45,219 nt of DNA from a virus (IMGVR_UViG_646206259_000004), one strand, 5' to 3'. Positions 3,986 to 43,939 are shown, counted from the stretch's first letter. Made by a program: numbers and translations. Notes: a model not told the origin generated them from the letters alone.

Positions 3986-4186
3986 TTAAAGACCTGCCGG
4001 GATTTCGTTATTATCCTGGTGAATAACTTTATCGACCGGGTAACAGTTACCGGGAATTTTCTGTTCGGTTGCTGCAGTCACACACTCCTGCATTGTCCTG
4101 TGAACACTGACTGCAGTATCAACTGGCTCTCCGGAAACAAGAAAAACTGTCAGAACAAGTGCAAATGCTGTATTCATTGCCAGCAT
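3986..4186 (-). CDS. ydfD: YdfD-like small membrane (lysis) protein
   Basis: 66 aa from the internal ATG with AAGGA RBS; hydrophobic N-terminus (AFALVLTVFLVSG) then ...VSVHRTMQEC...GNCYPVDKVIHQDN..., matching my recollection of Qin YdfD; overlaps the dicB stop by 13 nt. Confidence 0.55.
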   Translation of the reverse strand: MLAMNTAFALVLTVFLVSGEPVDTAVSVHRTMQECVTAATEQKIPGNCYPVDKVIHQDNNEIPAGL

Positions 4187-4362
4187 CCTTTTTGTATCGG
4201 ACGTAAACGGGCCAACATTGAAAGAATGCATATTTTATTTAATAGCTCCCGTTCGTGTTTTCTCTTGTTAATGGCATCTTCAGTAAATACAGGGTTACTG
4301 ATAGTGACACCAATTTCAAAACAACCTTCAGACGTATTAACGTTTGGTAATAACGTTTCCAT
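4174..4362 (-). CDS. dicB: Cell-division inhibitor DicB
   Basis: 62 aa ORF METLLPNVNTSEGCFEIGVTISNPVFTEDAINKRK...LNKICI.SMLARLR...KGC.Q, recognised as DicB; lies immediately downstream of DicF as in Qin. The 97 aa ORF in the track is an upstream over-extension. Confidence 0.8.
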   Translation of the reverse strand: METLLPNVNTSEGCFEIGVTISNPVFTEDAINKRKHERELLNKICILSMLARLRPIQKGCWQ

Positions 4363-4531
4363 TATCGCGTCCTCAACAATGAATTTTGTGATGCGGTGCC
4401 TGGTGCTTCCAGGTGACGTTAACCAGTTAACAATTAACGCCGGATACAGAGAATCCACCCATAACACTGTTTTTGGTTTTAACTGTTCCGCGTGCGCTTA
4501 GCCGCATTCACCGCATCACAAAATTCACTTT

Positions 4532-4589
4532 AAAAAGGGCGGCAGAGCAGTCACGGAGTAAAACTGATACCGCCAAACGTCACCAGAAA
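4532..4589 (-). ncRNA. dicF: DicF small RNA
   Basis: Reverse complement reads TTTCTGGTGACGTTTGGCGGTATCAGTTTTACTCCGTGACTGCTCTGCCGCCCTTTTT, recognised as DicF including its GC hairpin and U-run terminator; sits between the ydfC-like gene and dicB. Confidence 0.75.
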
Positions 4590-4927
4590 ATTGATAACAG
4601 AGGGCGTTGCAGCGGGGTTGTCACTTAAGCGTATGGTCAACCTGACAACCCGGTGTCCTCAACGGTGGAAGGAATAACCCCGCCATACTTACCGCCGCGC
4701 CATTTCGCGGATTGCCACAACCGGAAGCGCACGGTCGACGAAAATTTAACGACAGGCTATCTATGAACCAGCTACCTCGCCGTGCGCTTTCGCGTTATGG
4801 TCTGACTTTTCAGGGAAATATCCTTTCAGTAAACTGTCAGTGCCGGATGCTCACCCGTGTCCGGCGCACGCACTCCACCTCACCCGTGGAGAACTCCTTA
4901 ATTACCAACCTTAGCTTCGTTGGTTAG

Positions 4928-5149
4928 CTATTCACGCGGGTATGTAATCATTCTGGCAATGCTTAATGCCGCTGCTTTTTCCAGATTGGTGATATCCTGC
5001 TCCAGAGCGGACAGATTTTCAGCCTGCTTAGCCCTGGCTTCATTGGCCCATTTCAAATCCTGCGCTGCATTAATTTTCTGGCGCATCCACTCATAAAGTT
5101 CATCATTGGTATAGTCTGGCGCGATGATGACGGGTTCTCGTTTCTGCAT
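4928..5149 (-). CDS. ydfC: YdfC-like small protein
   Basis: 73 aa ORF directly upstream of DicF in the same operon orientation; size and position match Qin ydfC. Confidence 0.55.
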   Translation of the reverse strand: MQKREPVIIAPDYTNDELYEWMRQKINAAQDLKWANEARAKQAENLSALEQDITNLEKAAALSIARMITYPRE

Positions 5150-5178
5150 ACTGATTCCTCGCGGTGCTGCTTCGCTTA

Positions 5179-5307
5179 TCAGCCGTTAGATTTTGCCGAG
5201 CTGGAAAGCGCCTGTTTAAACTCACTGAAGCTGAGAGCTTCTTCGCCTTCGGCAAGGCCTTCGAAGTATTCTTCGTAAGCCTTTTCCATGATTGTGTCGA
5301 AATCCAT
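5179..5307 (-). CDS. ydfB: YdfB-like small protein (42 aa)
   Basis: Short ORF found by hand, below the track threshold: MDFDTIMEKAYEEYFEGLAEGEEALSFSEFKQALSSSAKSNG; fills the gap between the ydfA-like and ydfC-like genes. The track ORF 5103..5312 is the wrong frame. Confidence 0.5.
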   Translation of the reverse strand: MDFDTIMEKAYEEYFEGLAEGEEALSFSEFKQALSSSAKSNG

Positions 5308-5308
5308 A

Positions 5309-5464
5309 TCACTCACCTGAGTTTCTTTCCAGCCAGCGACGGGCACCATTTTCGGTTTTAAACGTTTTGCTTTTGGTATACGTCATCGCGGTGAACGTAC
5401 CGTCCTGGTTGGGGAACACGCCACATACCAGAGATTCGCTGTTGCCAAGATCGATAGTATCCAT
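5309..5464 (-). CDS. ydfA: YdfA-like small protein (51 aa)
   Basis: Internal start MDTIDLGNSE... preceded by a GAGG RBS; 51 aa matches the size of Qin YdfA; first gene downstream of the repressor on the minus strand. Confidence 0.5.
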   Translation of the reverse strand: MDTIDLGNSESLVCGVFPNQDGTFTAMTYTKSKTFKTENGARRWLERNSGE

Positions 5465-11320: not shown

Positions 11321-11474
11321 TTTTATATTGGCGAGGTGACGGGAGTTAAGTAGAATTGCTGCGGGTGCTTGAGGCTATCTGCCTCAGGCATGAACACCAA
11401 AGGCAGATAGAGAAAAGCCCCAGTTAATATTACGCGTCCTGCAAGACGCTTAACATTAATCTGAGGCTCAATCT

Positions 11475-11687
11475 ATGAACGGCAAATCTAGGTTAGCCTC
11501 TTACGTGCCGAAAGGCAAGGAGAAGCAGGCTATGAAGCAGCAAAAGGCGATGTTAATCGCCCTGATCGTCATCTGTTTAACCGTCATAGTGACGGCACTG
11601 GTAACGAGGAAAGACCTCTGCGAGGTACGAATCCGAACCGGCCAGACGGAGGTCGCTGTCTTCACAGTTTACGAACCTGAGGAGTAA
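11475..11687 (+). CDS. mok: Mok-like reading frame (N-terminally extended Hok frame)
   Basis: 70 aa ORF containing Hok in frame, as in mokC/hokC loci. Confidence 0.55.
   Translation: MNGKSRLASYVPKGKEKQAMKQQKAMLIALIVICLTVIVTALVTRKDLCEVRIRTGQTEVAVFTVYEPEE
11532..11687 (+). CDS. hok: Hok/Gef family type I toxin
   Basis: 51 aa MKQQKAMLIALIVICLTVIVTALVTRKDLCEVRIRTGQTEVAVFTVYEPEE, a near-match to the Hok/Gef/RelF family; mRNA-like context with upstream inverted repeats and a downstream fold-back/terminator. Confidence 0.85.
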   Translation: MKQQKAMLIALIVICLTVIVTALVTRKDLCEVRIRTGQTEVAVFTVYEPEE

Positions 11688-13193: not shown

Positions 13194-13568
13194 ATGCTCA
13201 TAGATTTGGTTTTACCTTACCCGCCGACGGTGAACACTTACTGGCGACGCCGTGGCAGCACATATTTTATCTCGGAGGAGGGAAAGCGTTATCGCCGGGC
13301 TGTGGCGCTTATTGTTCGCCAGCAGCGGCTGAAATTAAGCCTGTCCGGAAGGCTGGCGATAAAGGTGATTGCAGAGCCACCGGATAAGCGTCGTCGCGAC
13401 CTGGACAATATCCTGAAAGCACCGCTGGATGCGCTGACGCATGCGGGAGTGTTAATGGACGATGAGCAGTTTGATGAAATCAATATCGTTCGTGGTCAGC
13501 CAGTATCTGGTGGACGTATGGGGGTGAAGATTTACCCCATAATGCATGAAGAGCAGGTCAAAAAATGA
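13194..13568 (+). CDS. rusA: Holliday junction resolvase RusA
   Basis: 124 aa; LPYPPTVNTYWRRRG... and RRRDLDNILKAPLDAL motifs characteristic of RusA. Confidence 0.85.
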   Translation: MLIDLVLPYPPTVNTYWRRRGSTYFISEEGKRYRRAVALIVRQQRLKLSLSGRLAIKVIAEPPDKRRRDLDNILKAPLDALTHAGVLMDDEQFDEINIVRGQPVSGGRMGVKIYPIMHEEQVKK

Positions 13569-14386
13569 AACTGGAAGATTTACCGAAATACTACTCCCCA
13601 AAATCCCCTGGCCTGACCGATGCATCGGCCTCAACGTCAAAAGATGCGCTGAGTATCACTGATGTGATGGCCGCGCAGGGCATGACACAGAATCGGGCTG
13701 AGATGGGGTTTTCTGCGTTCCTGGGGAAAATGGGCATCAGTATGAATGACAGGGCGCGGGCAACAGAATTACTGGCAGATTATGCACTCAGTCGGTGCGA
13801 TCGTGTGGCGGCGTTGAGAAAACTTCCGGCAGAAATAAAACCGGTAGTGATGCGCATTATGGCTTCGTATGCGTTTGAAGATTATGCCCGTAGCGCGGCG
13901 AGCAAAAAACAGTGCCCTTGCTGTCACGGAAAAAAATTTATTGAAAGCGAGGTTTTTACAAACAAGATCCAGTATCCGGATGGTAAGCCACCAGTGTGGG
14001 CAAAGTGCACAAAAGGCGTGTATCCGTCTTACTGGGAAGAATGGAAAAAAGTCAGGGAGGTGGTAAAAGTTGCCTGTCCGGAGTGTGGCGGAAAGGGTGA
14101 GGTTTCCACCGCCTGTAAGGATTGCCGTGGGCGTGGTGTCGCCATTCATCGTGAAGAGTCGGTAAAACGTGGTATGCCTGTTATCAGAGATTGCCAGCGT
14201 TGTGGTGGTCGTGGCTGTGAAAGGCTGCCATCAACGGAGGCATTTAATGCCATATGCAAAGTGACGAGTGCTATCACGCTTGATACGTGGAAAAAATCAG
14301 TGAAACGCTTTTACGATACGTTGGTGGTTCGGTTTGACATTGAAGAGGCATGGGCGGAGCGGCAGTTAAAGAGGGTAACGCGATAG
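13565..14386 (+). CDS. Late gene antiterminator Q
   Basis: 273 aa, multiple CxxC zinc-finger motifs (CPCCHGK, CPECGGKG, CKDCRGRG, CQRCGGRG); overlaps the rusA stop; followed by promoter/terminator-like signals. Confidence 0.8.
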   Translation: MKLEDLPKYYSPKSPGLTDASASTSKDALSITDVMAAQGMTQNRAEMGFSAFLGKMGISMNDRARATELLADYALSRCDRVAALRKLPAEIKPVVMRIMASYAFEDYARSAASKKQCPCCHGKKFIESEVFTNKIQYPDGKPPVWAKCTKGVYPSYWEEWKKVREVVKVACPECGGKGEVSTACKDCRGRGVAIHREESVKRGMPVIRDCQRCGGRGCERLPSTEAFNAICKVTSAITLDTWKKSVKRFYDTLVVRFDIEEAWAERQLKRVTR

Positions 14387-14390
14387 TGTT

Positions 14391-14420
14391 GTTGATTTTT
14401 CCCGAATCTGTGGTAAATTT
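14391..14420 (+). promoter_or_regulatory. Candidate late promoter pR' (Q-dependent)
   Basis: TTGATT (-35-like) and TGgTAAATT (extended -10-like) immediately after Q; exact spacing uncertain. Confidence 0.4.
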
Positions 14421-14468
14421 GCTCTAACGATGGGCGTTTTATGCCTGACGTTAGAAGATTTTTTACAC

Positions 14469-14490
14469 CCCGCCGCCTGGCGGGTTTTTT
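14469..14490 (+). terminator. tR'-like intrinsic terminator
   Basis: CCCGCCGCCTGGCGGGTTTTTT hairpin plus T-run about 80 nt downstream of the Q stop. Confidence 0.55.
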
Positions 14491-14610
14491 ATGACTGAAA
14501 TCGCGTCAGTACAGTAAACGCGCTGGTGGCGGTGAATACCTGTCTTTCAGCTTGCTGGCTTTTTCGACAAGAGTTATTGGTGTGTCACGTTAACCGGAAA
14601 AGGAAAAGAC

Positions 14611-14808
14611 ATGCTAAAACAGCAGGATATGACAGAAACCGCCAGAGTGGTGTTTAATGAATTAAGCGTTACCGACCCGGCGACAGTCGGGGAGATAGCG
14701 CAGAATACTTACCTTTCACGCGAACGCTGCCAGTTAATACTGACTCAGCTGGTTATGGCGGGTCTGGCAGACTATCAGTTCGGTTGTTACAGACGCCTTC
14801 CGCAGTGA
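14611..14808 (+). CDS. Hypothetical small protein (65 aa)
   Basis: ORF with AAAGGAAAAG RBS-like sequence; lies between tR' and the methyltransferase. Confidence 0.45.
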   Translation: MLKQQDMTETARVVFNELSVTDPATVGEIAQNTYLSRERCQLILTQLVMAGLADYQFGCYRRLPQ

Positions 14809-14958
14809 AGGCTTTTTTATTTGTGGTAAATGGGCGGCTGGTGGGTGTTAGGGGCACCCACCAGCCATCTGCTCATGCGTCCGGATCACAAGCAAACCTC
14901 AGGCCCACTGCTTTGCGCAAAAGCAGAATGAGCCTATCAGAGACAGGCTTAATGATCC

Positions 14959-16008
14959 ATGCTTAATACTGTAAAAATATCCAGTTGTGAGTTAATCAAC
15001 GCCGACTGCCTGGAATTTATCCGGTCGTTACCCGAAAATTCTGTTGACCTGATAGTCACGGACCCGCCGTACTTTAAAGTGAAGCCTGAGGGCTGGGATA
15101 ACCAGTGGAAGGGCGACGATGATTACCTGAAGTGGCTGGACCAGTGTCTGGCGCAGTTCTGGCGGGTGCTGAAACCTGCCGGAAGTCTTTACCTGTTCTG
15201 TGGTCATCGCCTGGCATCTGATATCGAAATCATGATGCGTGAACGCTTCAGTGTGCTGAACCATATTATCTGGGCGAAGCCGTCCGGACGCTGGAACGGA
15301 TGCAACAAGGAAAGCCTGCGGGCGTATTTCCCCGCCACAGAGCGCATTCTGTTCGCGGAACATTATCAGGGGCCGTATCGTCCGAAAGATGCCGGGTATG
15401 CGGCGAAGGGCAGTGCACTGAAACAGCATGTGATGGCCCCGCTGATTTCTTACTTTCGTGATGCGCGCGCGGCCCTGGGGATAACGGCAAAACAGATTGC
15501 AGATGCCACAGGAAAGAAAAACATGGTGTCGCACTGGTTCAGTGCCAGTCAGTGGCAGCTACCGAATGAAAGCGATTATCTGAAATTACAGGCGCTGTTT
15601 GCCCGGGTGGCAGAAGAGAAGCATCGGCGTGGTGAACTGGAAAAGCTCCACCACCAGCTGGTGGATACGTATACCTCACTGAACCGGCAGTATGCGGAGC
15701 TGCTGAGTGAATATAAACATCTGCGGCGGTATTTTGGCGTGACGGTGCAGGTGCCGTATACCGATGTGTGGACGCATAAACCGGTGCAGTTCTATCCCGG
15801 GAAACATCCGTGCGAAAAACCGGCAGAAATGCTGCAGCAGATAATCAGCGCAAGTAGCCGTCCTGGTGATCTGGTTGCGGATTTTTTCATGGGGTCGGGT
15901 TCAACGGTAAAAGCGGCGATGGCACTGGGGCGTCGTGCGATTGGTGTTGAGCTGGAGACCGGACGTTTTGAGCAGACAGTCAGGGAAGTTCAGGATTTAA
16001 TCGTTTGA
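14959..16008 (+). CDS. Orphan DNA methyltransferase (DPPY motif; N6-adenine or N4-cytosine class)
   Basis: 349 aa; LIVTDPPYF catalytic motif and C-terminal FFMGSGST SAM-binding motif; no adjacent restriction endonuclease gene. Confidence 0.85.
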   Translation: MLNTVKISSCELINADCLEFIRSLPENSVDLIVTDPPYFKVKPEGWDNQWKGDDDYLKWLDQCLAQFWRVLKPAGSLYLFCGHRLASDIEIMMRERFSVLNHIIWAKPSGRWNGCNKESLRAYFPATERILFAEHYQGPYRPKDAGYAAKGSALKQHVMAPLISYFRDARAALGITAKQIADATGKKNMVSHWFSASQWQLPNESDYLKLQALFARVAEEKHRRGELEKLHHQLVDTYTSLNRQYAELLSEYKHLRRYFGVTVQVPYTDVWTHKPVQFYPGKHPCEKPAEMLQQIISASSRPGDLVADFFMGSGSTVKAAMALGRRAIGVELETGRFEQTVREVQDLIV

Positions 16009-16057
16009 AACGGATGAGATTGCAGAATTAATTACGCACCATTATTATTCTGCTCCC

Positions 16058-16133
16058 GGCCCTTTAGCTCAGTGGTGAGAGCGAGCGACTCATAATCGCC
16101 AGGTCGCTGGTTCAAATCCAGCAAGGGCCACCA
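16058..16133 (+). tRNA. ileZ: tRNA with CAU anticodon (Ile2/lysidine type or Met; ileZ-like)
   Basis: Hand-folded cloverleaf: acceptor GGCCCTT/AAGGGCC, D-arm GCTC/GAGC, anticodon loop CTCATAA, T-loop TTCAAAT, 3' CCA encoded. Confidence 0.75.
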
Positions 16134-16140
16134 TCACATA

Positions 16141-16217
16141 CCGCCATTAGCTCATCAGGAAAGAGCGCCAGCCTTCGAAGCTGGTTGCGCGGAGTTCGGG
16201 TCCCCGAAGGCGGTCCA
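16141..16217 (+). tRNA. argN: tRNA-Arg (UCG anticodon; argN-like), atypical stems
   Basis: Cloverleaf folds with anticodon loop CTTCGAA and T-loop TTCGGGT, but with one mismatch each in the acceptor and T stems; needs tRNAscan confirmation. Confidence 0.5.
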
Positions 16218-16230
16218 TTATCTGTATCCT

Positions 16231-16307
16231 GCGTTGTTAGCTCAGCCGGACAGAGCAATTGCCTTCTAAGCAATCGGTCACTGGTTCGAATCCAGTACAA
16301 CGCGCCA
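16231..16307 (+). tRNA. argO: tRNA-Arg (UCU anticodon; argO-like)
   Basis: Acceptor GCGTTGT/ACAACGC, anticodon loop CTTCTAA, T-loop TTCGAAT, 3' CCA encoded. Confidence 0.75.
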
Positions 16308-16352
16308 CACTTATTTTCCCTGGCTCGCTTTTGCGGGCTTTTTTTTAAATGT

Positions 16353-16566
16353 CTCACAATTCAGGCGGTTGACTGTTGTCTGGTTTGCGGGGAGTTTGTT
16401 AAAAGAAACTGGCATGGTGAATCCCCCTGTGCGGAGGGGCAATCAGCGAGTAGGTATATGGGATAATCGCGGATTCAGGTGCTGGTACTGAATTCACCGG
16501 GAGGCACCCGGCACCATGCAATGGCACATAGCGCCACTCTCCAGCCCCTCTCCGGAGGGGCTTTTC
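16353..16566 (+). repeat. Structured non-coding module, copy 1 (candidate sRNA with own promoter-like motifs and intrinsic terminator)
   Basis: CTCACAATTCAG..GTTGAC...GGTGAATCCCCCTGTGCGGAGGGGC...(T)ATAAT...CACCGGGAGGCACCCGGCACCATG...CCCCTCTCCGGAGGGG+T-run; shares these blocks with copy 2. Confidence 0.4.
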
Positions 16567-16820
16567 TGTGCCGGATACATCACAGTTTCTGGAACCTTAG
16601 GTACTACAGTATCAGTCAGGGTGCTATATTTTCAGATGTGATGAAAGCCTGTCAGCAGGCAGGGCGTATCGGAAATGACCCAGTAGAGAAAACGTTGACT
16701 CAGATACCGGTGCTGAGTTACCGGGAAACCGGCATCACATGACCGCTATCCTTCCAGGCCCATCCGCTCCGGTGGGCCTTTTTACTGCAGAAAACAGGTT
16801 CCCCGTTAAATGCTATGTTG

Positions 16821-17055
16821 CTCACAATTCAGTAAGTTGACAGTTGCCTGTCAGACTGGGCATTTGTTAAAAAAATTTCGCATGGTGAATCCCCCTGAGC
16901 GGAGGGGCGACTGGTGACGGTATAATCTCTGATTATCAAAACGAGAATGACGCGGGTTTAGTGGCACCGGGCTGAACTCACCGGGAGGCACCCGGCACCA
17001 TGTGCATGATGATACAGATACGCGGCTTTAGCCCCTCTCCGGAGGGGTTTTCTTG
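16821..17055 (+). repeat. Structured non-coding module, copy 2
   Basis: Same conserved blocks as copy 1 in the same order, ending in the CCCCTCTCCGGAGGGG hairpin plus T-run; 468 bp downstream of copy 1. Confidence 0.4.
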
Positions 17056-17282
17056 TGGGCAAAAAAAGCCCGCGCTGGGAGACGCGGGCGGCAAGGAATA
17101 AACAATAAAACGTGAAGTAATATTTCAGCTGGCGAATAATACCCCATAGTAATCACTCTGCGCAACTGCGCGGTCTTTTTCGAATTGCGGGCTGTCGTCT
17201 CTCTTCTGCCATTGTCCTGTAACTTCCGGACTTCAGCCCGCTCCTTATTTTACTCACAATATTATCCCGGCCGGGAGGATTC

Positions 17283-17510
17283 ATGGCATTTAAACACTAT
17301 GACGTGGTCAGGGCGGTATCGCCGTCAGACCTTGCGAAACGACTGACACAAAAACTGAAGGAGGGCTGGCAGCCGTTTGGTAGTCCGGTGGCCATAACCC
17401 CTTATACCCTGATGCAGGCGATTGCAGCAGAAGGTGATGTGGTGGTCAGTGGTGCAACTGAGCCGGATTGGTACTACGTCATCGTACTGGCCCGGCATTC
17501 CAGGCCATAA
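17283..17510 (+). CDS. Hypothetical phage protein upstream of the lysis cassette
   Basis: 75 aa ORF with GGAGG RBS 5 nt before the ATG. Confidence 0.5.
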   Translation: MAFKHYDVVRAVSPSDLAKRLTQKLKEGWQPFGSPVAITPYTLMQAIAAEGDVVVSGATEPDWYYVIVLARHSRP

Positions 17511-17778
17511 AAGACAGTCTGGCAGTGGGACTAAATGCACTGACGCTGATGGATATTACCAAAAATGTAACGTATGGCGTTGAGATAGAAAGTCTGGCGC
17601 TGGAGATAAATGCACCGGCATCATCATAAAAAGTGAGCCAGTCAAATGGAAGGTATCGTTAAACTCACCGGTAGTGTCAGTGGGTCGTCTGAGACGCTTG
17701 CATGAGTTATCAGAGCCATCAGTAGTTAACTGGTGGCTTTTTTATTGTTTTCAGCTTCCGGATAACGGGAGACGGGGT

Positions 17779-17994
17779 ATGGACCAGATGGAAAAAATCA
17801 CAACAGGTGTGTCATACACCACGTCAGCGGTGGGAACGGGCTACTGGTTCCTGCAGTTGCTGGACAGGGTTTCCCCGTCTCAGTGGGCGGCAATAGGCGT
17901 GCTGGGGAGTCTGCTGTTTGGGCTGCTGACATATCTGACTAACCTGTATTTCAAAATCAGAGAGGACCGTCGTAAGGCGGCACGGGGAGAGTAA
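17779..17994 (+). CDS. S: S21-type pinholin (class II holin, dual-start)
   Basis: [71 protein letters not shown] closely resembles phage 21 S; Met1/Met4 dual start; the track ORF over-extends upstream. Confidence 0.85.
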
Positions 17995-19518: not shown

Positions 19519-20145
19519 ATGAACCGCGTACTGTGCGTGGTCATCATTGCCCTGCTGGTGGCCTGTGGTGCGCTTAGTCTGGGGCTGAATCATTACCGTG
19601 ATAACGCCATTACCTACAAAGCCCAGCGCGACAAAAATGTCAGAGAACTGAAGCTGGCGAACGCGGCAATTACTGACATGNNNNNNNNNNNNNNNNNNNN
19701 NNNNNNNNNNNNNNNNNNNNNNNNNNNNNNNNNNNNNNNNNNNNNNNNNNNNNNNNNNNNNNNNNNNNNNNNNNNNNNNNNNNNNNNNNNNNNNNNNNNN
19801 NNNNNNNNNNNNNNNNNNNNNNNNNNNNNNNNNNNNNNNNNNNNNNNNNNNNNNNNNNNNNNNNNNNNNNNNNNNNNNNNNNNNNNNNNNNNNNNNNNNN
19901 NNNNNNNNNNNNNNNNNNNNNNNNNNNNNNNNNNNNNNNNNNNNNNNNNNNNNNNNNNNNNNNNNNNNNNNNNNNNNNNNNNNNNNNNNNNNNNNNNNNN
20001 NNNNNNNNNNNNNNNNNNNNNNNNNNNNNNNNNNNNNNNNNNNNNNNNNNNNNNNNNNNNNNNNNNNNNNNNNNCGCGACTGATAATAATGCAAAAACAA
20101 CTTGAAGGGGCACAGCTATACATTCGAGAGCAATGCCTCAGATAA
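19519..20145 (+). CDS. Rz: Rz i-spanin (interior N-masked; embedded Rz1 not visible)
   Basis: N-terminus ...[31 protein letters not shown] and C-terminus [20 protein letters not shown] match lambda Rz; 19681-20074 is N-masked. Confidence 0.8.
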
Positions 20146-21576: not shown

Positions 21577-23117
21577 NNNNNNNNNNNNNNNNNNNNNNNN
21601 NNNNNNNNNNNNNNNNNNNNNNNNNNNNNNNNNNNNNNNNNNNNNNNNNNNNNNNNNNNNNNNNNNNNNNNNNNNNNNNNNNNNNNNNNNNNNNNNNNNN
21701 NNNNNNNNNNNNNNNNNNNNNNNNNNNNNNNNNNNNNNNNNNNNNNNNNNNNNNNNNNNNNNNNNNNNNNNNNNNNNNNNNNNNNNNNNNNNNNNNNNNN
21801 NNNNNNNNNNNNNNNNNNNNNNNNNNNNNNNNNNNNNNNNNNNNNNNNNNNNNNNNNNNNNNNNNNNNNNNNNNNNNNNNNNNNNNNNNNNNNNNNNNNN
21901 NNNNNNNNNNNNNNNNNNNNNNNNNNNNNNNNNNNNNNNNNNNNNNNNNNNNNNNNNNNNNNNNNNNNNNNNNNNNNNNNNNNNNNNNNNNNNNNNNNNN
22001 NNNNNNNNNNNNNNNNNNNNNNNNNNNNNNNNNNNNNNNNNNNNNNNNNNNNNNNNNNNNNNNNNNNNNNNNNNNNNNNNNNNNNNNNNNNNNNNNNNNN
22101 NNNNNNNNNNNNNNNNNNNNNNNNNNNNNNNNNNNNNNNNNNNNNNNNNNNNNNNNNNNNNNNNNNNNNNNNNNNNNNNNNNNNNNNNNNNNNNNNNNNN
22201 NNNNNNNNNNNNNNNNNNNNNNNNNNNNNNNNNNNNNNNNNNNNNNNNNNNNNNNNNNNNNNNNNNNNNNNNNNNNNNNNNNNNNNNNNNNNNNNNNNNN
22301 NNNNNNNNNNNNNNNNNNNNNNNNNNNNNNNNNNNNNNNNNNNNNNNNNNNNNNNNNNNNNNNNNNNNNNNNNNNNNNNNNNNNNNNNNNNNNNNNNNNN
22401 NNNNNNNNNNNNNNNNNNNNNNNNNNNNNNNNNNNNNNNNNNNNNNNNNNNNNNNNNNNNNNNNNNNNNNNNNNNNNNNNNNNNNNNNNNNNNNNNNNNN
22501 NNNNNNNNNNNNNNNNNNNNNNNNNNNNNNNNNNNNNNNNNNNNNNNNNNNNNNNNNNNNNNNNNNNNNNNNNNNNNNNNNNNNNNNNNNNNNNNNNNNN
22601 NNNNNNNNNNNNNNNNNNNNNNNNNNNNNNNNNNNNNNNNNNNNNNNNNNNNNNNNNNNNNNNNNNNNNNNNNNNNNNNNNNNNNNNNNNNNNNNNNNNN
22701 NNNNNNNNNNNNNNNNNNNNNNNNNNNNNNNNNNNNNNNNNNNNNNNNNNNNNNNNNNNNNNNNNNNNNNNNNNNNNNNNNNNNNNNNNNNNNNNNNNNN
22801 NNNNNNNNNNNNNNNNNNNNNNNNNNNNNNNNNNNNNNNNNNNNNNNNNNNNNNNNNNNNNNNNNNNNNNNNNNNNNNNNNNNNNNNNNNNNNNNNNNNN
22901 NNNNNNNNNNNNNNNNNNNNNNNNNNNNNNNNNNNNNNNNNNNNNNNNNNNNNNNNNNNNNNNNNNNNNNNNNNNNNNNNNNNNNNNNNNNNNNNNNNNN
23001 NNNNNNNNNNNNNNNNNNNNNNNNNNNNNNNNNNNNNNNNNNNNNNNNNNNNNNNNNNNNNNNNNNNNNNNNNNNNNNNNNNNNNNNNNNNNNNNNNNNN
23101 NNNNNNNNNNNNNNNNA

Positions 23118-24766: not shown

Positions 24767-25934
24767 NNNNNNNNNNNNNNNNNNNNNNNNNNNNNNNNNN
24801 NNNNNNNNNNNNNNNNNNNNNNNNNNNNNNNNNNNNNNNNNNNNNNNNNNNNNNNNNNNNNNNNNNNNNNNNNNNNNNNNNNNNNNNNNNNNNNNNNNNN
24901 NNNNNNNNNNNNNNNNNNNNNNNNNNNNNNNNNNNNNNNNNNNNNNNNNNNNNNNNNNNNNNNNNNNNNNNNNNNNNNNNNNNNNNNNNNNNNNNNNNNN
25001 NNNNNNNNNNNNNNNNNNNNNNNNNNNNNNNNNNNNNNNNNNNNNNNNNNNNNNNNNNNNNNNNNNNNNNNNNNNNNNNNNNNNNNNNNNNNNNNNNNNN
25101 NNNNNNNNNNNNNNNNNNNNNNNNNNNNNNNNNNNNNNNNNNNNNNNNNNNNNNNNNNNNNNNNNNNNNNNNNNNNNNNNNNNNNNNNNNNNNNNNNNNN
25201 NNNNNNNNNNNNNNNNNNNNNNNNNNNNNNNNNNNNNNNNNNNNNNNNNNNNNNNNNNNNNNNNNNNNNNNNNNNNNNNNNNNNNNNNNNNNNNNNNNNN
25301 NNNNNNNNNNNNNNNNNNNNNNNNNNNNNNNNNNNNNNNNNNNNNNNNNNNNNNNNNNNNNNNNNNNNNNNNNNNNNNNNNNNNNNNNNNNNNNNNNNNN
25401 NNNNNNNNNNNNNNNNNNNNNNNNNNNNNNNNNNNNNNNNNNNNNNNNNNNNNNNNNNNNNNNNNNNNNNNNNNNNNNNNNNNNNNNNNNNNNNNNNNNN
25501 NNNNNNNNNNNNNNNNNNNNNNNNNNNNNNNNNNNNNNNNNNNNNNNNNNNNNNNNNNNNNNNNNNNNNNNNNNNNNNNNNNNNNNNNNNNNNNNNNNNN
25601 NNNNNNNNNNNNNNNNNNNNNNNNNNNNNNNNNNNNNNNNNNNNNNNNNNNNNNNNNNNNNNNNNNNNNNNNNNNNNNNNNNNNNNNNNNNNNNNNNNNN
25701 NNNNNNNNNNNNNNNNNNNNNNNNNNNNNNNNNNNNNNNNNNNNNNNNNNNNNNNNNNNNNNNNNNNNNNNNNNNNNNNNNNNNNNNNNNNNNNNNNNNN
25801 NNNNNNNNNNNNNNNNNNNNNNNNNNNNNNNNNNNNNNNNNNNNNNNNNNNNNNNNNNNNNNNNNNNNNNNNNNNNNNNNNNNNNNNNNNNNNNNNNNNN
25901 NNNNNNNNNNNNNNNNNNNNNNNNNNNNNNNNNT

Positions 25935-30639: not shown

Positions 30640-33324
30640 TCTTGTTATTGACCTGAGTCTGGATGCTGTCCGTTTCGATGAGCAGATGAGCCGGGTAAGG
30701 CGTCATTTTTCAGGTCTGGATACCGACGCCAGAAAAACCGCCAGTGCTGTTGAACAGGGCCTGAGCCGCCAGGCGCTGGCTGCACAAAAAGCCGGGATTT
30801 CCGTCGGGCAGTATAAAGCGGCCATGCGAACCCTGCCCGCACAGTTTACGGATATCGCCACGCAGCTTGCCGGTGGTCAGAATCCCTGGTTGATCCTGCT
30901 GCAACAGGGCGGTCAGGTGAAGGACTCCTTCGGCGGGATGATCCCCATGTTCAGGGGGCTTGCCGGTGCGATCACCCTGCCGATGGTCGGGGTCACCTCG
31001 CTGGCGGTGGCGACAGGTGCGCTGGCGTACGCCTGGTACCAGGGCGACGCCACGCTTTCAGAATTTAATAAAACGCTGGTCCTTTCCGGCAATCAGGCCG
31101 GACTGACTGCCGATCGTATGCTGACGCTCTCAAGAGCCGGGCAGGCAGCAGGGCTGACGTTTAACCAGGCGAGAGAGTCACTGGCAGCCTTGGTGAATGC
31201 CGGTGTGCGTGGTGGTGAACAGTTTGATGCCATCAACCAGAGTGTCGCGCGTTTTGCGTCTGCATCCGGTGTGGAGGTGGATNNNNNNNNNNNNNNNNNN
31301 NNNNNNNNNNNNNNNNNNNNNNNNNNNNNNNNNNNNNNNNNNNNNNNNNNNNNNNNNNNNNNNNNNNNNNNNNNNNNNNNNNNNNNNNNNNNNNNNNNNN
31401 NNNNNNNNNNNNNNNNNNNNNNNNNNNNNNNNNNNNNNNNNNNNNNNNNNNNNNNNNNNNNNNNNNNNNNNNNNNNNNNNNNNNNNNNNNNNNNNNNNNN
31501 NNNNNNNNNNNNNNNNNNNNNNNNNNNNNNNNNNNNNNNNNNNNNNNNNNNNNNNNNNNNNNNNNNNNNNNNNNNNNNNNNNNNNNNNNNNNNNNNNNNN
31601 NNNNNNNNNNNNNNNNNNNNNNNNNNNNNNNNNNNNNNNNNNNNNNNNNNNNNNNNNNNNNNNNNNNNNNNNNNNNNNNNNNNNNNNNNNNNNNNNNNNN
31701 NNNNNNNNNNNNNNNNNNNNNNNNNNNNNNNNNNNNNNNNNNNNNNNNNNNNNNNNNNNNNNNNNNNNNNNNNNNNNNNNNNNNNNNNNNNNNNNNNNNN
31801 NNNNNNNNNNNNNNNNNNNNNNNNNNNNNNNNNNNNNNNNNNNNNNNNNNNNNNNNNNNNNNNNNNNNNNNNNNNNNNNNNNNNNNNNNNNNGTTCCGTA
31901 ACGTGACGGCAGAGCAGATTGCGTATGTTGCACAGCTGCAGCGTTCCGGAGACGAGGCCGGGGCATTGCAGGCGGCGAACGATATCGCCACGAAAGGCTT
32001 TGATGAGCAGACCCGTCGCCTGAAAGAAAACATGGGAACACTGGAGACCTGGGCGGATAAAACAGGGAAGGCATTCAAATCGATGTGGGATGCCATTCTG
32101 GATATCGGTCGTCCGGAATCCTCAGCGGATATGCTCGCCAGTGCGCAGAAGGCATTTGATGAGGCGGATAAAAAATGGCAGTGGTACCAGAGCCGGAGCC
32201 AGCGCCGGGGAAAGACCTCCTCTTTTCGTGCGAACCTTCAGGGGGCATGGGATGACCGGGAAAATGCCCGTCTGGGTCTGGCAGCGGCCACGCTGCAGTC
32301 GGATATGGAAAAAGCCGGTGAACTGGCGGCAAGGGACAGGGCTGAGCGTGAGTCGTCACAGCTGAAGTATACCGGAGAGGCGCAGAAGGCGTATGAGCGC
32401 CTGCAGACGCCGCTGGATAAATATACCGCCCGTCAGAAAGAGCTGAATAAGGCCCTGAAAGACGGAAAAATCCTGCAGGCGGATTACAACACGCTGATGG
32501 CGTCGGCAAAAAAGGATTATGAATCGACGCTGAAAAAGCCGTCAGGTGTGAAGGTGTCTGCCGGTGAGCGCCAGGAAGACCGGGCGCATGCAGCCCTGCT
32601 GGCGCTTGAAACCGAGCTCAGGACGCTGGAAAAACACAGCGGTGTGAATGAGAAAATCAGCCAGCAGCGCCGGGATTTATGGGAAGCGGAAAGTCAGTAT
32701 GTGGTCCTGAAAGAGGCCGCCACGAAACGGCAGTTATCTGAGCAGGAAAAATCCCTGCTGGCTCATGAGAAAGAGACGCTGGAGTACAAACGCCAGCTGG
32801 CTGAGCTGGGAGACAAGATTGAACACCAGAAGCGGCTGAATGAGCTGGCACAGCAGGCGGCGCGGTTTGAACAGCAGCAAAGCGCGAAGCAGGCGGCAAT
32901 CAGCGCAAAAGCCCGCGGCCTCACCGACCGTCAGGCGCAGCGGGAGTCGGAAGAGCAGCGCCTTCGTGAGGTGTACGGTGATAATCCGGCTGCGCTGGCG
33001 AAGGCCACATCGGCACTGAAGAACACCTGGTCTGCGGAGGAGCAGCTTCGTGGAAGCTGGATGGCCGGGATGAAGTCCGGCTGGGGAGAGTGGGCGGAAA
33101 GTGCGACGGACAGTTTTTCGCAGGTTAAAAGTGTGGCCACGCAGACCTTTGACGGTATTGCACAGAATATGGCGGCGATGCTGACCGGCAGCGAACAGAA
33201 CTGGCGGGGATTCACCCGTTCCGTGCTGTCCATGATGACAGAAATTCTGCTTAAGCAGGCAATGGTGGGGATTGTCGGGAGTATCGGCAGCGCCATTGGC
33301 GGGGCTGTTGGTGGCGGCGCATCC
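30620..33324 (+). CDS. H: Tape measure protein H (two internal/3' stretches N-masked; continues beyond 33324)
   Basis: N-terminus MSQPVGDLVIDLSLDAVRFDEQMSRVRRHFSG... and later segments (AEQIAYVAQLQRSGDEAGALQAAN..., ...LLKQAMVGIVGSIGSAIGGAVGGGAS) match lambda gpH. The frame differs on the two sides of the 31283-31892 mask, so mask length is not codon-faithful. Confidence 0.9.
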
Positions 33325-34932
33325 NNNNNNNNNNNNNNNNNNNNNNNNNNNNNNNNNNNNNNNNNNNNNNNNNNNNNNNNNNNNNNNNNNNNNNNNNNNN
33401 NNNNNNNNNNNNNNNNNNNNNNNNNNNNNNNNNNNNNNNNNNNNNNNNNNNNNNNNNNNNNNNNNNNNNNNNNNNNNNNNNNNNNNNNNNNNNNNNNNNN
33501 NNNNNNNNNNNNNNNNNNNNNNNNNNNNNNNNNNNNNNNNNNNNNNNNNNNNNNNNNNNNNNNNNNNNNNNNNNNNNNNNNNNNNNNNNNNNNNNNNNNN
33601 NNNNNNNNNNNNNNNNNNNNNNNNNNNNNNNNNNNNNNNNNNNNNNNNNNNNNNNNNNNNNNNNNNNNNNNNNNNNNNNNNNNNNNNNNNNNNNNNNNNN
33701 NNNNNNNNNNNNNNNNNNNNNNNNNNNNNNNNNNNNNNNNNNNNNNNNNNNNNNNNNNNNNNNNNNNNNNNNNNNNNNNNNNNNNNNNNNNNNNNNNNNN
33801 NNNNNNNNNNNNNNNNNNNNNNNNNNNNNNNNNNNNNNNNNNNNNNNNNNNNNNNNNNNNNNNNNNNNNNNNNNNNNNNNNNNNNNNNNNNNNNNNNNNN
33901 NNNNNNNNNNNNNNNNNNNNNNNNNNNNNNNNNNNNNNNNNNNNNNNNNNNNNNNNNNNNNNNNNNNNNNNNNNNNNNNNNNNNNNNNNNNNNNNNNNNN
34001 NNNNNNNNNNNNNNNNNNNNNNNNNNNNNNNNNNNNNNNNNNNNNNNNNNNNNNNNNNNNNNNNNNNNNNNNNNNNNNNNNNNNNNNNNNNNNNNNNNNN
34101 NNNNNNNNNNNNNNNNNNNNNNNNNNNNNNNNNNNNNNNNNNNNNNNNNNNNNNNNNNNNNNNNNNNNNNNNNNNNNNNNNNNNNNNNNNNNNNNNNNNN
34201 NNNNNNNNNNNNNNNNNNNNNNNNNNNNNNNNNNNNNNNNNNNNNNNNNNNNNNNNNNNNNNNNNNNNNNNNNNNNNNNNNNNNNNNNNNNNNNNNNNNN
34301 NNNNNNNNNNNNNNNNNNNNNNNNNNNNNNNNNNNNNNNNNNNNNNNNNNNNNNNNNNNNNNNNNNNNNNNNNNNNNNNNNNNNNNNNNNNNNNNNNNNN
34401 NNNNNNNNNNNNNNNNNNNNNNNNNNNNNNNNNNNNNNNNNNNNNNNNNNNNNNNNNNNNNNNNNNNNNNNNNNNNNNNNNNNNNNNNNNNNNNNNNNNN
34501 NNNNNNNNNNNNNNNNNNNNNNNNNNNNNNNNNNNNNNNNNNNNNNNNNNNNNNNNNNNNNNNNNNNNNNNNNNNNNNNNNNNNNNNNNNNNNNNNNNNN
34601 NNNNNNNNNNNNNNNNNNNNNNNNNNNNNNNNNNNNNNNNNNNNNNNNNNNNNNNNNNNNNNNNNNNNNNNNNNNNNNNNNNNNNNNNNNNNNNNNNNNN
34701 NNNNNNNNNNNNNNNNNNNNNNNNNNNNNNNNNNNNNNNNNNNNNNNNNNNNNNNNNNNNNNNNNNNNNNNNNNNNNNNNNNNNNNNNNNNNNNNNNNNN
34801 NNNNNNNNNNNNNNNNNNNNNNNNNNNNNNNNNNNNNNNNNNNNNNNNNNNNNNNNNNNNNNNNNNNNNNNNNNNNNNNNNNNNNNNNNNNNNNNNNNNN
34901 NNNNNNNNNNNNNNNNNNNNNNNNNNNNNNNT

Positions 34933-35881: not shown

Positions 35882-38800
35882 ATGGGTAAAGGAAGCAGTA
35901 AGGGGCATACCCCGCGCGAAGCGAGGGACAACCTGAAGTCCACGCAGCTGCTGAGTGTGATCGATGCCATCAGCGAAGGGCCGGTTGAAGGTCCGGTGGA
36001 CGGATTAAAAAGCGTGCTGCTGAACAGTACGCCGGTGCTGGACAGTGAGGGGAATACCAATATATCCGGTGTCACGGTGGTGTTCCGGGCAGGTGAGCAG
36101 GAGCAGACACCGCCGGAGGGATTTGAATCCTCCGGCTCCGAGACGGTGCTGGGTACGGAAGTGAAATATGACACGCCGATCACCCGGACCATCACGTCGG
36201 CAAACATCGACCGTCTGCGCTTTACCTTCGGTGTGCAGGCACTGGTGGAAACCACCTCAAAGGGGGACAGGAATCCGTCGGAAGTCCGCCTGCTGGTTCA
36301 GATCCAGCGTAACGGTGGCTGGGTGACGGAAAAAGACATCACCATTAAGGGCAAAACCACCTCGCAGTATCTGGCCTCGGTGGTGGTGGATAACCTGCCG
36401 CCGCGCCCGTTTAATATCCGGATGCGCAGAATGACGCCGGACAGCACCACAGACCAGCNNNNNNNNNNNNNNNNNNNNNNNNNNNNNNNNNNNNNNNNNN
36501 NNNNNNNNNNNNNNNNNNNNNNNNNNNNNNNNNNNNNNNNNNNNNNNNNNNNNNNNNNNNNNNNNNNNNNNNNNNNNNNNNNNNNNNNNNNNNNNNNNNN
36601 NNNNNNNNNNNNNNNNNNNNNNNNNNNNNNNNNNNNNNNNNNNNNNNNNNNNNNNNNNNNNNNNNNNNNNNNNNNNNNNNNNNNNNNNNNNNNNNNNNNN
36701 NNNNNNNNNNNNNNNNNNNNNNNNNNNNNNNNNNNNNNNNNNNNNNNNNNNNNNNNNNNNNNNNNNNNNNNNNNNNNNNNNNNNNNNNNNNNNNNNNNNN
36801 NNNNNNNNNNNNNNNNNNNNNNNNNNNNNNNNNNNNNNNNNNNNNNNNNNNNNNNNNNNNNNNNNNNNNNNNNNNNNNNNNNNNNNNNNNNNNNNNNNNN
36901 NNNNNNNNNNNNNNNNNNNNNNNNNNNNNNNNNNNNNNNNNNNNNNNNNNNNNNNNNNNNNNNNNNNNNNNNNNNNNNNNNNNNNNNNNNNNNNNNNNNN
37001 NNNNNNNNNNNNNNNNNNNNNNNNNNNNNNNNNNNNNNNNNNNNNNNNNNNNNNNNNNNNNNNNNNNNNNNNNNNNNNNNNNNNNNNNNNNNNNNNNNNN
37101 NNNNNNNNNNNNNNNNNNNNNNNNNNNNNNNNNNNNNNNNNNNNNNNNNNNNNNNNNNNNNNNNNNNNNNNNNNNNNNNNNNNNNNNNNNNNNNNNNNNN
37201 NNNNNNNNNNNNNNNNNNNNNNNNNNNNNNNNNNNNNNNNNNNNNNNNNNNNNNNNNNNNNNNNNNNNNNNNNNNNNNNNNNNNNNNNNNNNNNNNNNNN
37301 NNNNNNNNNNNNNNNNNNNNNNNNNNNNNNNNNNNNNNNNNNNNNNNNNNNNNNNNNNNNNNNNNNNNNNNNNNNNNNNNNNNNNNNNNNNNNNNNNNNN
37401 NNNNNNNNNNNNNNNNNNNNNNNNNNNNNNNNNNNNNNNNNNNNNNNNNNNNNNNNNNNNNNNNNNNNNNNNNNNNNNNNNNNNNNNNNNNNNNNNNNNN
37501 NNNNNNNNNNNNNNNNNNNNNNNNNNNNNNNNNNNNNNNNNNNNNNNNNNNNNNNNNNNNNNNNNNNNNNNNNNNNNNNNNNNNNNNNNNNNNNNNNNNN
37601 NNNNNNNNNNNNNNNNNNNNNNNNNNNNNNNNNNNNNNNNNNNNNNNNNNNNNNNNNNNNNNNNNNNNNNNNNNNNNNNNNNNNNNNNNNNNNNNNNNNN
37701 NNNNNNNNNNNNNNNNNNNNNNNNNNNNNNNNNNNNNNNNNNNNNNNNNNNNNNNNNNNNNNNNNNNNNNNNNNNNNNNNNNNNNNNNNNNNNNNNNNNN
37801 NNNNNNNNNNNNNNNNNNNNNNNNNNNNNNNNNNNNNNNNNNNNNNNNNNNNNNNNNNNNNNNNNNNNNNNNNNNNNNNNNNNNNNNNNNNNNNNNNNNN
37901 NNNNNNNNNNNNNNNNNNNNNNNNNNNNNNNNNNNNNNNNNNNNNNNNNNNNNNNNNNNNNNNNNNNNNNNNNNNNNNNNNNNNNNNNNNNNNNNNGTCG
38001 GTATCGTTCCGGATTGCCGCACCGGCAGCACCGTCGAGGATTGAGCTGACGCCGGGCTATTTTCAGATAACCGCCACGCCGCATCTTGCTGTTTATGACC
38101 CGACGGTACAGTTTGAGTTCTGGTTCTCGGAAAAGCGGATTACCGATATCAGGCAGGTTGAAACCACAGCCCGCTATCTTGGTACGGCGCTGTACTGGAT
38201 AGCCGCCAGTATCAATATCAAACCGGGCCATGATTATTATTTTTACGTTCGCAGTGTGAACACCGTTGGCAAATCGGCATTCGTGGAGGCTGTCGGTCGG
38301 GCGAGCGATGATGCGGAAGGTTACCTGGATTTTTTCAAAGGAGAAATCGGGAAAACACATCTGGCCCAGGAGTTGTGGACGCAGATTGATAACGGTCAGC
38401 TTGCGCCGGACCTGGCTGAAATCAGGACGTCCATTACGAATGTCAGCAATGAAATCACGCAGACCGTCAATAAAAAACTGGAAGACCAGAGTGCGGCAAT
38501 CCAGCAGATACAGAAAGTTCAGGTTGATACAAATAATAACCTGAACAGCATGTGGGCCGTGAAACTGCAGCAGATGAAGGACGGACGCCTTTATATTGCG
38601 GGTATCGGAGCCGGTATTGAGAATACGCCAGCAGGTATGCAGAGTCAGGTGCTTCTGGCTGCTGACCGGATTGCGATGATTAATCCTGCGAATGGCAACA
38701 CAAAGCCGATGTTTGTTGGTCAGGGCGATCAGATATTCATGAACGACGTGTTCCTGAAACGCCTGACGGCTCCGACCATTACCAGCGGCGGTAATCCTCC

Positions 38801-43100: not shown

Positions 43101-43301
43101 CAGTCAGCAGGTGCTCATACCCACTCGCTGTCTGGTACTGCAGCAAGTTCTGGCGCACATGCACATACTGTAGGTATTGGTGCGCATACGCACTCCGTTG
43201 CGATTGGTTCACATGGACACACCATCACCGTTAACGCTGCTGGTAACGCGGAAAACACCGTCAAAAACATCGCATTTAACTATATTGTGAGGCTTGCATA
43301 A
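40181..43301 (+). pseudogene. stf: Side tail fibre stf, split by a +1 frameshift caused by a 13-bp tandem duplication (40633-40658)
   Basis: N-terminus MTVKISGVLKDGTGKPVQNCTI.LKARR... and C-terminus ...[31 protein letters not shown] match lambda Stf; track ORFs 40181..40738 and 40467..43301 are in different frames; CAGCACGTGCCGC occurs twice in tandem and removing one copy restores a single frame. Confidence 0.8.
41577..42065 (+). repeat. In-frame 132-bp (44 aa) tandem repeats within stf, about 3.7 copies
   Basis: Repeated unit [44 protein letters not shown]; copies 2 and 3 nearly identical at the DNA level. Confidence 0.85.
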
Positions 43302-43885: not shown

Positions 43886-43939
43886 TCATTGGGATTATGC
43901 CGCAGCACGTCTTAAGCAAGAACGTGCTGCGGTTGGATG

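Follow-up and report, generated by a model that had tools for sequence, protein, structure and literature searches.

The interval at about 16340-17290 of the window, a viral sequence of 45,219 nucleotides (IMGVR_UViG_646206259_000004), most probably holds four independently transcribed small RNA (sRNA) genes in the moron slot of a prophage of UTI89, and we put the probability of this reading, including an Hfq-type, trans-acting mode of action, at roughly 0.8. Two of the genes, copies 1 and 2, are STnc100, a small regulatory RNA family of lambda-like prophages that is already catalogued. A diverged paralogue lies between them, and a fourth gene converges on these three from the minus strand. 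Family membership, fold, covariation, promoter and terminator motifs, synteny and the reassortment of 5' and 3' parts were each determined directly. The family has been partly studied and the additions made here are incremental: the diverged middle paralogue, the recurrence of the trio, the convergent partner, a corrected relation to the stx slot, and a pattern of conservation that is the reverse of the usual one.

A lambdoid prophage of the uropathogenic E. coli strain UTI89 matches the window with 100% identity, from the integrase gene to the tail-fibre genes, and is also present in the type strain ATCC 11775 and in S88, IHE3034 and NU14. The first-pass annotation had described a slot between Q/tRNAs and lysis genes with no toxin gene, occupied instead by two tandem modules; indeed, no toxin gene was found between the tRNAs and the holin gene, and repeat search and pairwise alignment recovered two modules of ~235 bp each, spaced by 468 bp and 80% identical overall (Table 1). 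The conserved blocks named at that stage were all located, namely CTCACAATTCAG..GTTGAC, GGTGAATCCCCCTG(T/A)GCGGAGGGGC, CACCGGGAGGCACCCGGCACCATG, and CCCCTCTCCGGAGGGG followed by a T-run as the intrinsic terminator. The (T)ATAAT element listed with them did not hold up as a conserved promoter element, because its two occurrences (GATAAT at 16462 and TATAAT at 16921) are out of register between the copies and fall inside the variable hairpin P3; an internal promoter at this site was rejected for the same reason. A terminator scan of positions 14300-17800 gave 15 terminator-like sites, compared with 3.1 +/- 1.9 in shuffled sequences, and these sites include one terminator for each canonical copy. 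RefSeq annotates no ncRNA in the region and places a minus-strand, incomplete pseudo-CDS ('hypothetical protein', 16402-16527) inside copy 1.

Table 1 Features of the late-operon segment from the Q gene to the holin gene, in window positions.
Feature	Position	Strand	Sequence or remark
Q gene	13565-14386		PF03589, E=2e-49
Late promoter PR'	14391-14430	+	TTGATT-16-TAAATT, lambda-like AACGAT pause element
tR'	14469-14484, then T6 (to 14490)	+	terminator scan; PR'/tR' immediately downstream of Q gene
Phage tRNA cluster	16058-16307	+	CAT (Ile in RefSeq), Arg-TCG, Arg-TCT
tRNA-cluster terminator	stem 16322-16339, then T8 (cluster with terminator 16058-16346)	+	terminator scan
Repeat block, 88 nt	16353-16440 and 16821-16908		80% identity, spacing 468; repeat search
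Repeat block, 31 nt	16488-16518 and 16972-17002		97%; repeat search
Terminator repeat block, 28 nt	16543-16570 and 17030-17057		89%; repeat search
Copy 1 promoter region	16341-16411	+	TTTAAAT, box CTCACAATTCAG (16353-16364), tandem heptamers
Copy 1 heptamers	16369-16382	+	TTGACTG/TTGTCTG; TTGTCT is -35-like hexamer
Copy 1 predicted extended -10	16397-16405	+	TGtTAAAAG
Copy 1 RNA	16412-16568	+	~157 nt; extent by PasD1 homology
Copy 1 P1			GCAUGGUG/CACCAUGC; closes hairpins P2-P5
Copy 1 linker			AAUGGCACAUAGCGCCACUCUCCAG; between P1 and terminator
Copy 1 terminator stem	16543-16562	+	followed by U-run
Middle extended -10	16622-16630	+	TGcTATATT; read from sequence, position homologous to canonical copies
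Middle paralogue RNA	16636-16785	+	~150 nt; STnc100-like, diverged
Middle P1			AUGUGAUG/CAUCACAU
Middle P2, P4, P5			GCCUG-UCAG-CAGGC; ACUCAG/CUGAGU; CCGG-GAAA-CCGG
Middle linker			GACCGCUAUCCUUCCA
Middle terminator	16756-16779, then T5	+	
Copy 2 promoter region	16809-16879	+	box CTCACAATTCAG (16821-16832)
Copy 2 heptamers	16837-16850	+	TTGACAG/TTGCCTG
Copy 2 predicted extended -10	16865-16873	+	TGtTAAAAA
Copy 2 RNA	16880-17056	+	~175 nt; extent by PasD1 homology
Copy 2 linker			UGCAUGAUGAUACAGAUACGCGGCUUUAG; between P1 and terminator
Copy 2 terminator stem	17030-17049	+	
Convergent sRNA gene	17061-17254	-	long form ~190 nt; terminator and homology
Convergent sRNA terminator	17089-17061	-	GCCCGCGTCUCCCAGCGCGGGC then U7; terminator scan
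Predicted long-form promoter	17261-17289	-	sigma-70-like ATGCCA-17-GATAAT; consensus scan
Holin gene	17779-17994		PF04971

An Rfam scan, suggested in the first-pass annotation as a check on its proposal of small non-coding RNAs, supports that proposal. Copy 1 (16383-16573) matched RF02076, 'Gammaproteobacterial sRNA STnc100', with 136.3 bits (E=5e-30) and copy 2 (16851-17060) with 161 bits (E=2e-36), in both cases over the full model (positions 1-206) and well above the curated gathering threshold of 47 bits. The copies also have the organization of STnc100, a closing helix round internal hairpins followed by a terminator hairpin, and, as STnc100 does, they lie between the Q antiterminator gene and the lysis genes of a lambdoid prophage, with synteny as in Sakai Sp5. 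The first ~29 positions of the RF02076 model correspond to promoter DNA and not to RNA, since the mapped 5' end of PasD, a related sRNA of EPEC, lies further downstream. By analogy with their homologues, the copies in UTI89 would function as small regulatory RNAs.

A common promoter layout precedes the majority of the 123 family members that were gathered from viral contigs (54 distinct upstream sequences). Its elements are TTTAAAT, the box CTCACAATTCAG, a tandem of the heptamers TTGAC(T/A)G and TTG(T/C)CTG, and an extended -10 element, TGtTAAAA(G/A). With the RNA start aligned to the G of GCATGG, where PasD1 begins according to RNA-seq, the predicted extended -10 ends 7 nt before the inferred transcript start, and on this pattern each module is inferred to have a plus-strand promoter. 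The strict sigma-70 consensus scan called no plus-strand promoter in this stretch; the -35 hexamers are weak, which is why it missed them. TTGAC(T/A) was passed over as the -35 hexamer of the main promoter, as a 17-nt spacer then meets GAGTTT or GCATTT, a poor and non-conserved -10; TTG(T/C)CT combined with TGnTAAAA was preferred because it is conserved and better fits the PasD 5' end. For a sigma-54 promoter, an idea taken from a Salmonella ChIP-exo paper, inspection by eye gave no GG-N10-GC in register.

The family fold comprises a closing helix P1 enclosing hairpins P2-P5, a single-stranded linker and the terminator, which in the window copies reads CCCCUCUCCGGAGGGG or GGCCCAUCCGCUCCGGUGGGCC. 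The minimum-free-energy fold of copy 1 is the family fold (z=-2.4). Helices P1, P2, P4 and P5 of copy 2 are the same as those of copy 1 and its variable P3 is longer; folded alone, this copy was ambiguous, with a z of only -1.3, and the consensus structure was not obtained. The covariance analysis on homologous loci that had been proposed at the outset was carried out on 46 distinct 5' domains from viral contigs and supports the fold. Standard pairs occupied 96.8% of cells, compared with at most 46.5% when the partners were slid against each other, and both-sided changes were present in seven pairs, mainly in P4, with compensatory changes in P3 and P4. Alignment columns 84-107 of P4, for example, hold GC in 22 sequences and AU in 19, and columns 88-103 hold AU, GC or UA, while variation in P1 is exclusively from G-C to G-U. 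RNAalifold recovered P1, P2, P4 and P5. P2, P5 and most loops are invariant among the homologues and therefore uninformative on structure. An alternative pairing of the box CAAUUCAG with the 3' strand of P4 was dropped because P4 variants such as that of Sp5 are not accompanied by matching changes in the box.

The stretch between the two canonical copies, previously described as non-conserved spacer, was found to hold a third, diverged copy of the module with a promoter-like element and a terminator of its own (16622-16785). It aligns to the canonical copies across the whole module and keeps P1, P2, P4, P5 and the terminator with different sequences; all of its helices are retained through compensatory changes, and the minimum-free-energy fold of 16636-16785 has the same five-helix architecture (z=-2.6). 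In a permissive Rfam search it gave a sub-threshold STnc100 match (16612-16785, 30.1 bits, E=6e-4), and because this score is below 47 bits it is not a member of RF02076 by score. The middle element was detected in 673 of 5426 complete E. coli genomes (~12%), in two variants, and in five phage records. In ECONIH6 and phage PhiR5_2, which carry a 91%-identical variant with an identical TGcTATATT, it is likewise flanked by two canonical STnc100 genes, with unchanged spacing. Among 114 loci the complete trio (STnc100, middle element, STnc100) was present in ten and a truncated form (middle element, STnc100) in three, and the middle element never occurred without an adjacent STnc100 gene. These architecture counts are BLAST-based, because MAFFT placed P2 of the middle copy out of register.

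The convergent gene on the minus strand was recognized by its terminator and by homology. It is ~96% identical over ~200 nt to the EPEC sRNA E2348C_1409.E2348C_1408.IGR, and the position of the predicted long-form promoter fits the 182-nt extent reported for that homologue. A short form of ~70 nt, starting from an internal TTGCGC-18-TATTAT promoter, is possible. The RNA folds with z=-3.1. Its sequence identity, which includes the seed-like stretch CCUUGCC and the terminator GCCCGCGUCUCCC(A/U)GCGCGGGC, places it in the group formed by the EPEC sRNA and its EHEC homologues EcOnc08/21/42. The EPEC homologue is a hub in Hfq RIL-seq with targets including cfa and dppA, and CCUUGCC is the complement of its target motif, GGCA(A/G)GG. 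Apart from a weak OmrA-B match, no Rfam family was found for the minus-strand RNA at E<=1.

The comparison with Stx phages corrects the proposal that the modules stand at the position where such phages carry stx. Sakai Sp5 carries, one after another, Q, tRNAs (ileZ, argN, argO), stx2AB, STnc100, AsxR on the minus strand and a DUF1737/nanS ORF. The Sp5 STnc100 (208 bits) aligns with copy 2 including the flanks, and the window at ~16810-17300 is homologous to the Sp5 stretch that starts just after stx2B; given this order and homology, copy 2 and the convergent gene represent a resident pair that is also present in Stx phages. As stx2AB of Sp5 lies upstream of the copy-2 homologue, only copy 1 and the middle paralogue occupy the stx slot. 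The proposal thus holds for these two and not for copy 2, which corresponds to a gene downstream of stx.

Convergent sRNA pairs were described in the lambdoid 'moron' slot 3' of PR' in EHEC by Tree et al. 2014, one example being EcOnc27 with the anti-sRNA AsxR, 3' of stx2B (PMC4104026). In a 2025 study, the STnc100 prediction downstream of stx2B was equated with the Hfq-binding EcOnc27 and with sRNA103 of EDL933, and overexpression of this RNA raised the transcript levels of fimZ and espA (PMC12711010). Transcriptome reads were obtained for each of the 11 STnc100 copies of EDL933, and a northern blot confirmed one of them (PMC5331693); the STnc100 located 75 nt downstream of stx2 was detected in outer-membrane vesicles (PMC12370729). 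EcOnc27/sRNA103 and copies 1 and 2 are alike in the five-helix 5' domain, the terminator, the promoter region and the slot. The Sp5 linker, AGUAUACAGAGAUUAGGCAUAUACCAAGG, differs from the linkers of the window copies, and the window, unlike Sp5, carries three family members in tandem without stx.

A second related system is formed by PasD1 and PasD2 of EPEC E2348/69 (EHEC homologue EcOnc13), which were seen by Hfq RIL-seq (PMC8550237). The Storz laboratory concluded in a 2026 preprint that these RNAs and STnc100 have a structure and an ancestry in common. PasD1 is 173 nt long: its 5' end, taken from RNA-seq, is the G of GCATGGTGAATCC, and its 3' end is at the terminator. The PasD seed inferred from RIL-seq lies directly 5' of the terminator, the same position as the linker in the window copies. 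PasD levels changed little in the RNA-seq table for an hfq mutant, and the authors report Hfq-dependent stability on northern blots (PMC8550237). The PasD RNAs share the 5' start GCAUGGUGAAUCC, P1 and P2 with the window copies and resemble them in length (172-173 nt) and in their location near Q and a holin gene. However, they lack P5, and their promoter (TTGACT-17-TTAAAA), terminator (GGCUGCGCAUGGCGCGGCC) and seed (UUGUGAG) are all absent from the window copies; TTGTGAG does not occur on the plus strand in 16000-17400. Moreover, the PasD genes score just 38-41 bits on RF02076 and were reported far apart (2026 preprint), while the window copies are in tandem. Membership of the window copies in PasD was therefore rejected, since seed, terminator and P5 differ.

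The following sequence of events would account for these observations; expression in UTI89, binding by Hfq, the seed role of the linker, the targets and Q read-through are all extrapolated from the homologues and from lambda biology. Three tandem plus-strand STnc100/PasD genes would each be transcribed from their own extended -10, starting at the base of P1, with the fourth gene converging on them from the minus strand. In the lysogen the RNAs would be produced and, by way of their terminator and U-tail, bound by Hfq; the variable linker would base-pair in trans with host and accessory mRNAs, so that each copy would have its own target set, and the 5' domain may provide a scaffold for stabilisation or recognition. 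Incidentally, the module terminators would insulate the lysis genes in the lysogen, and in lytic growth Q-modified RNA polymerase from PR' would read through them.

That incidental effect could also be the main one. The modules might be chiefly cis-acting elements of the late operon, either stacked terminators or insulators, duplicated PR'/qut/tR'-like elements or an antitermination RNA, which prevent expression of the lysis genes in the lysogen and let Q-modified polymerase pass, any short RNAs being by-products. The modules do lie inside the Q-dependent late transcription unit, where plus-strand terminators are found at 16322, 16543, 16756, 17030 and 17158 and again at 17712, just before the holin gene, the 15 sites of the scan exceed the 3.1 expected, and conservation is higher in the 5' domain than in the putative seed. 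Against this, each module has a conserved promoter region of its own, a covarying five-helix domain would be superfluous for a simple terminator, and the homologues accumulate as discrete Hfq-associated RNAs with targets in trans. The canonical PR' (TAAATT with the AACGAT pause) and tR' are already present at 14391-14490, directly after Q, which rules out the modules as the late promoter. A lambdoid PR'-tR' leader of the lambda 6S RNA/StxS type was likewise rejected, as the modules lie 2 kb downstream, past a methylase gene and the tRNAs. Taken together, we regard a mainly cis-acting role as unlikely.

Still less probable is that the modules are sponges for core-genome sRNAs, in the manner of AgvB for GcvB and AsxR for FnrS, although the anti-sRNA genes raised in the first-pass annotation would belong here. 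AgvB and AsxR of EHEC are encoded in the same moron slot 3' of PR', also in convergent sRNA pairs; AsxR of Sp5 adjoins STnc100 and converges on it, much as the window has a convergent partner gene, and sRNA-sRNA pairs can occur in RIL-seq hubs. However, no match to RF02702 or RF02703 (AgvB/AsxR) was obtained at E<=1 in 14300-17800, whereas the Sp5 control gave AsxR with 88 bits. AgvB and AsxR are 51-60 nt long and encoded on the opposite strand, and the minus-strand RNA of the window differs from them in its 3' part, which in AgvB/AsxR is a conserved stretch of 42 nt, and in its terminator. The reported targets of PasD and of the EPEC convergent homologue are, furthermore, mostly mRNAs (aceE, uspA, tir, cfa, dppA).

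We give hardly any weight to the repeats being non-functional, decaying traces of recombination or the remains of a mobile element or coding gene, despite the strong divergence of the middle copy and the 'hypothetical protein' features placed here by RefSeq and one phage record, for helices are kept by compensatory changes even in that copy, many lineages retain the promoter and terminator motifs, and the repeat search found no inverted terminal repeats. The only ORF, of 87 aa (16479-16742), has no Pfam match; it starts in P4 of copy 1, crosses the terminator of copy 1 and ends in the middle RNA, in keeping with the earlier view that this is not coding sequence. It is frameshifted in a close relative (L156), and its conservation is uninformative, being intact solely in near-identical loci. 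The minus-strand feature at 16402-16527 is flagged as an incomplete pseudogene by RefSeq itself.

Within the STnc100-type RNAs the structured 5' domain (105-125 nt) is kept, and the presumed seed, a single-stranded linker of 16-30 nt just 5' of the terminator, is variable and differs among all three window copies. At least 16 linker classes occur across the family, and they are reassorted among the classes into which the variable part of the 5' domain falls. Seven of them accompany the 5' class seen in copy 1, for instance, and five 5' classes share the linker class seen in copy 2. The two STnc100 copies in the window carry linker classes S0 and S3. An analogy, drawn in part from the discussion in the 2026 preprint, is offered by OmrA/OmrB, PrrF1/PrrF2 and Qrr1-5, multicopy or tandem sibling sRNAs with a conserved seed. 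Like the window genes they are neighbouring paralogues with a common scaffold and partly differing sequence, but there the seed is conserved, whereas in the window family it is the 5' domain that is conserved and the presumed seed that varies. A conserved scaffold with a variable presumed seed is the reverse of what most Hfq sRNAs display.

The invariance of P2, P5 and the loops (AAU, GUGCGG and AGGCA in the 5' domain) hints at a sequence-specific role of this domain that the seed-pairing model leaves unexplained. One tentative and rather doubtful extension is that STnc100/PasD constitutes a modular platform driven by recombination, in which the 5' domain has its own sequence-specific role, linkers are swappable and tandem arrays widen the range of targets. 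If so, the 5' domain could bind a protein other than Hfq or act in cis on polymerase or the late transcript, linker cassettes would set target specificity, and the trio would extend the target repertoire of the prophage. A pattern search with GCATGGTGAATCCNCC (15 specified bases) in 596 Gb of contigs gave a chance-level result, the listed matches coming from unrelated phyla.

The findings amount chiefly to a correction of annotation, as the two modules are textbook STnc100 genes and RefSeq gives the region no RNA gene, only the pseudo-CDS that falls within copy 1; they open no long-standing question. Of specialist interest is the conserved trio with a middle paralogue below the Rfam threshold. 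An extra-intestinal pathogen (UTI89 and ST95-type strains) moreover carries sRNA cargo of the EHEC/EPEC type in the stx slot. Finally, the candidate pairing stretches of the three linkers are CUCUCCAG, UCCUUCC and the linker of copy 2; C/U-rich stretches are present in two of the three window linkers and, judged by their sequence, could pair with Shine-Dalgarno regions.

The interval between the two canonical copies of the prophage sRNA STnc100 (Rfam family RF02076), which the first-pass annotation described as non-conserved spacer, instead houses a third, diverged STnc100-like gene, the middle paralogue (16622-16785). Its RF02076 score in the Rfam search was 30 bits, against a threshold of 47; every helix is preserved through compensatory changes, and the gene possesses an extended -10 element and a terminator of its own. 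The middle paralogue is carried by 673 of 5426 E. coli genomes, adjoined by canonical STnc100 copies in all cases seen. In PhiR5_2, a phage with a similar trio, a 'hypothetical protein' CDS overlies it (1460-1627 of that locus, L245). At STnc100 copy 1, the RefSeq annotation contains no ncRNA and places a minus-strand incomplete pseudo 'hypothetical protein', UTI89_RS29460 (16402-16527), inside the copy, probably a mis-annotation.

Features of the prophage around the STnc100 genes and elsewhere in the window.
Feature	Coordinates	Strand	Basis
dicF sRNA gene	4537-4588	-	RF00039, 76.7 bits
sok antitoxin RNA gene	11363-11687	+	RF01794, 113 bits
Late promoter PR' and terminator tR'	14391-14490	+	TTGATT-16-TAAATT; CCCGCCGCCTGGCGGG, then T6
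CAT-anticodon tRNA	16058-16133	+	ARAGORN, RefSeq
Conserved box CTCACAATTCAG	16353-16364, 16821-16832		upstream of each canonical module
Diverged STnc100-like gene	16622-16785	+	RF02076, helices, extended -10, terminator
Convergent sRNA gene	17061-17289	-	EPEC homolog
DUF1737 ORF	17283-17510	+	truncated remnant
IS009 match	43644-43842	+	Rfam, 224 bits

Positions 1-29 of the RF02076 model correspond to 16383-16411 (copy 1) and 16851-16879 (copy 2). Judged by the mapped 5' end of PasD1, an STnc100-related EPEC sRNA, the 5' end of the model represents the promoter -10 region (UUAAAA) and spacer rather than transcribed RNA, and its outer three-pair helix is probably spurious. The box CTCACAATTCAG contains CUCACA, the motif that RIL-seq gave for targets of PasD, whose seed is UUGUGAG. 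CTCACAA occurs a third time at 17253-17259, and thus the long form (~190 nt) of the convergent minus-strand sRNA would start with about UUGUGAG; the recurrence of CTCACA at these three sites may be a chance coincidence.

The convergent gene shares ~96% identity with E2348C_1409-1408 IGR, an sRNA seen by Hfq RIL-seq in EPEC, which has the homologs EcOnc08/21/42 and the seed CCUUGCC. Apart from a weak OmrA-B match, no Rfam family matched it at E<=1. The adjacent DUF1737 ORF is an incomplete pseudogene in RefSeq. In the Stx2 phage Sp5 the homologous start opens the 1.9-kb gene ECs_1207, in contrast to the short ORF in the window, so this prophage no longer has the esterase portion.

Upstream, PR' shares the promoter-proximal pause element AACGAT with lambda, and PR'-tR' would yield a predicted leader RNA of ~75 nt, similar to lambda 6S RNA or StxS. 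The CAT-anticodon tRNA was assigned to Met by ARAGORN but to Ile (ileZ-like) by RefSeq; for the latter reading the anticodon would have to carry lysidine.

Elsewhere in the prophage, dicF adjoins dicB, ydfD and ydfABC (region 3986-5464), and thus a Qin-like dic operon is present. The sok gene lies immediately 5' of hokD, the two forming a type I toxin-antitoxin module. Six N runs mask parts of the window (19681-20074, 21577-23116, 24767-25933, 31283-31892, 33325-34931 and 36459-37996), where UTI89 encodes a lysis protein, terminase, portal and protease, tail chaperones, tape measure and a tail-tip protein. The IS009 match falls within the tail-fibre coding sequence (41580-44687) and may reflect conserved coding sequence, not an RNA gene.
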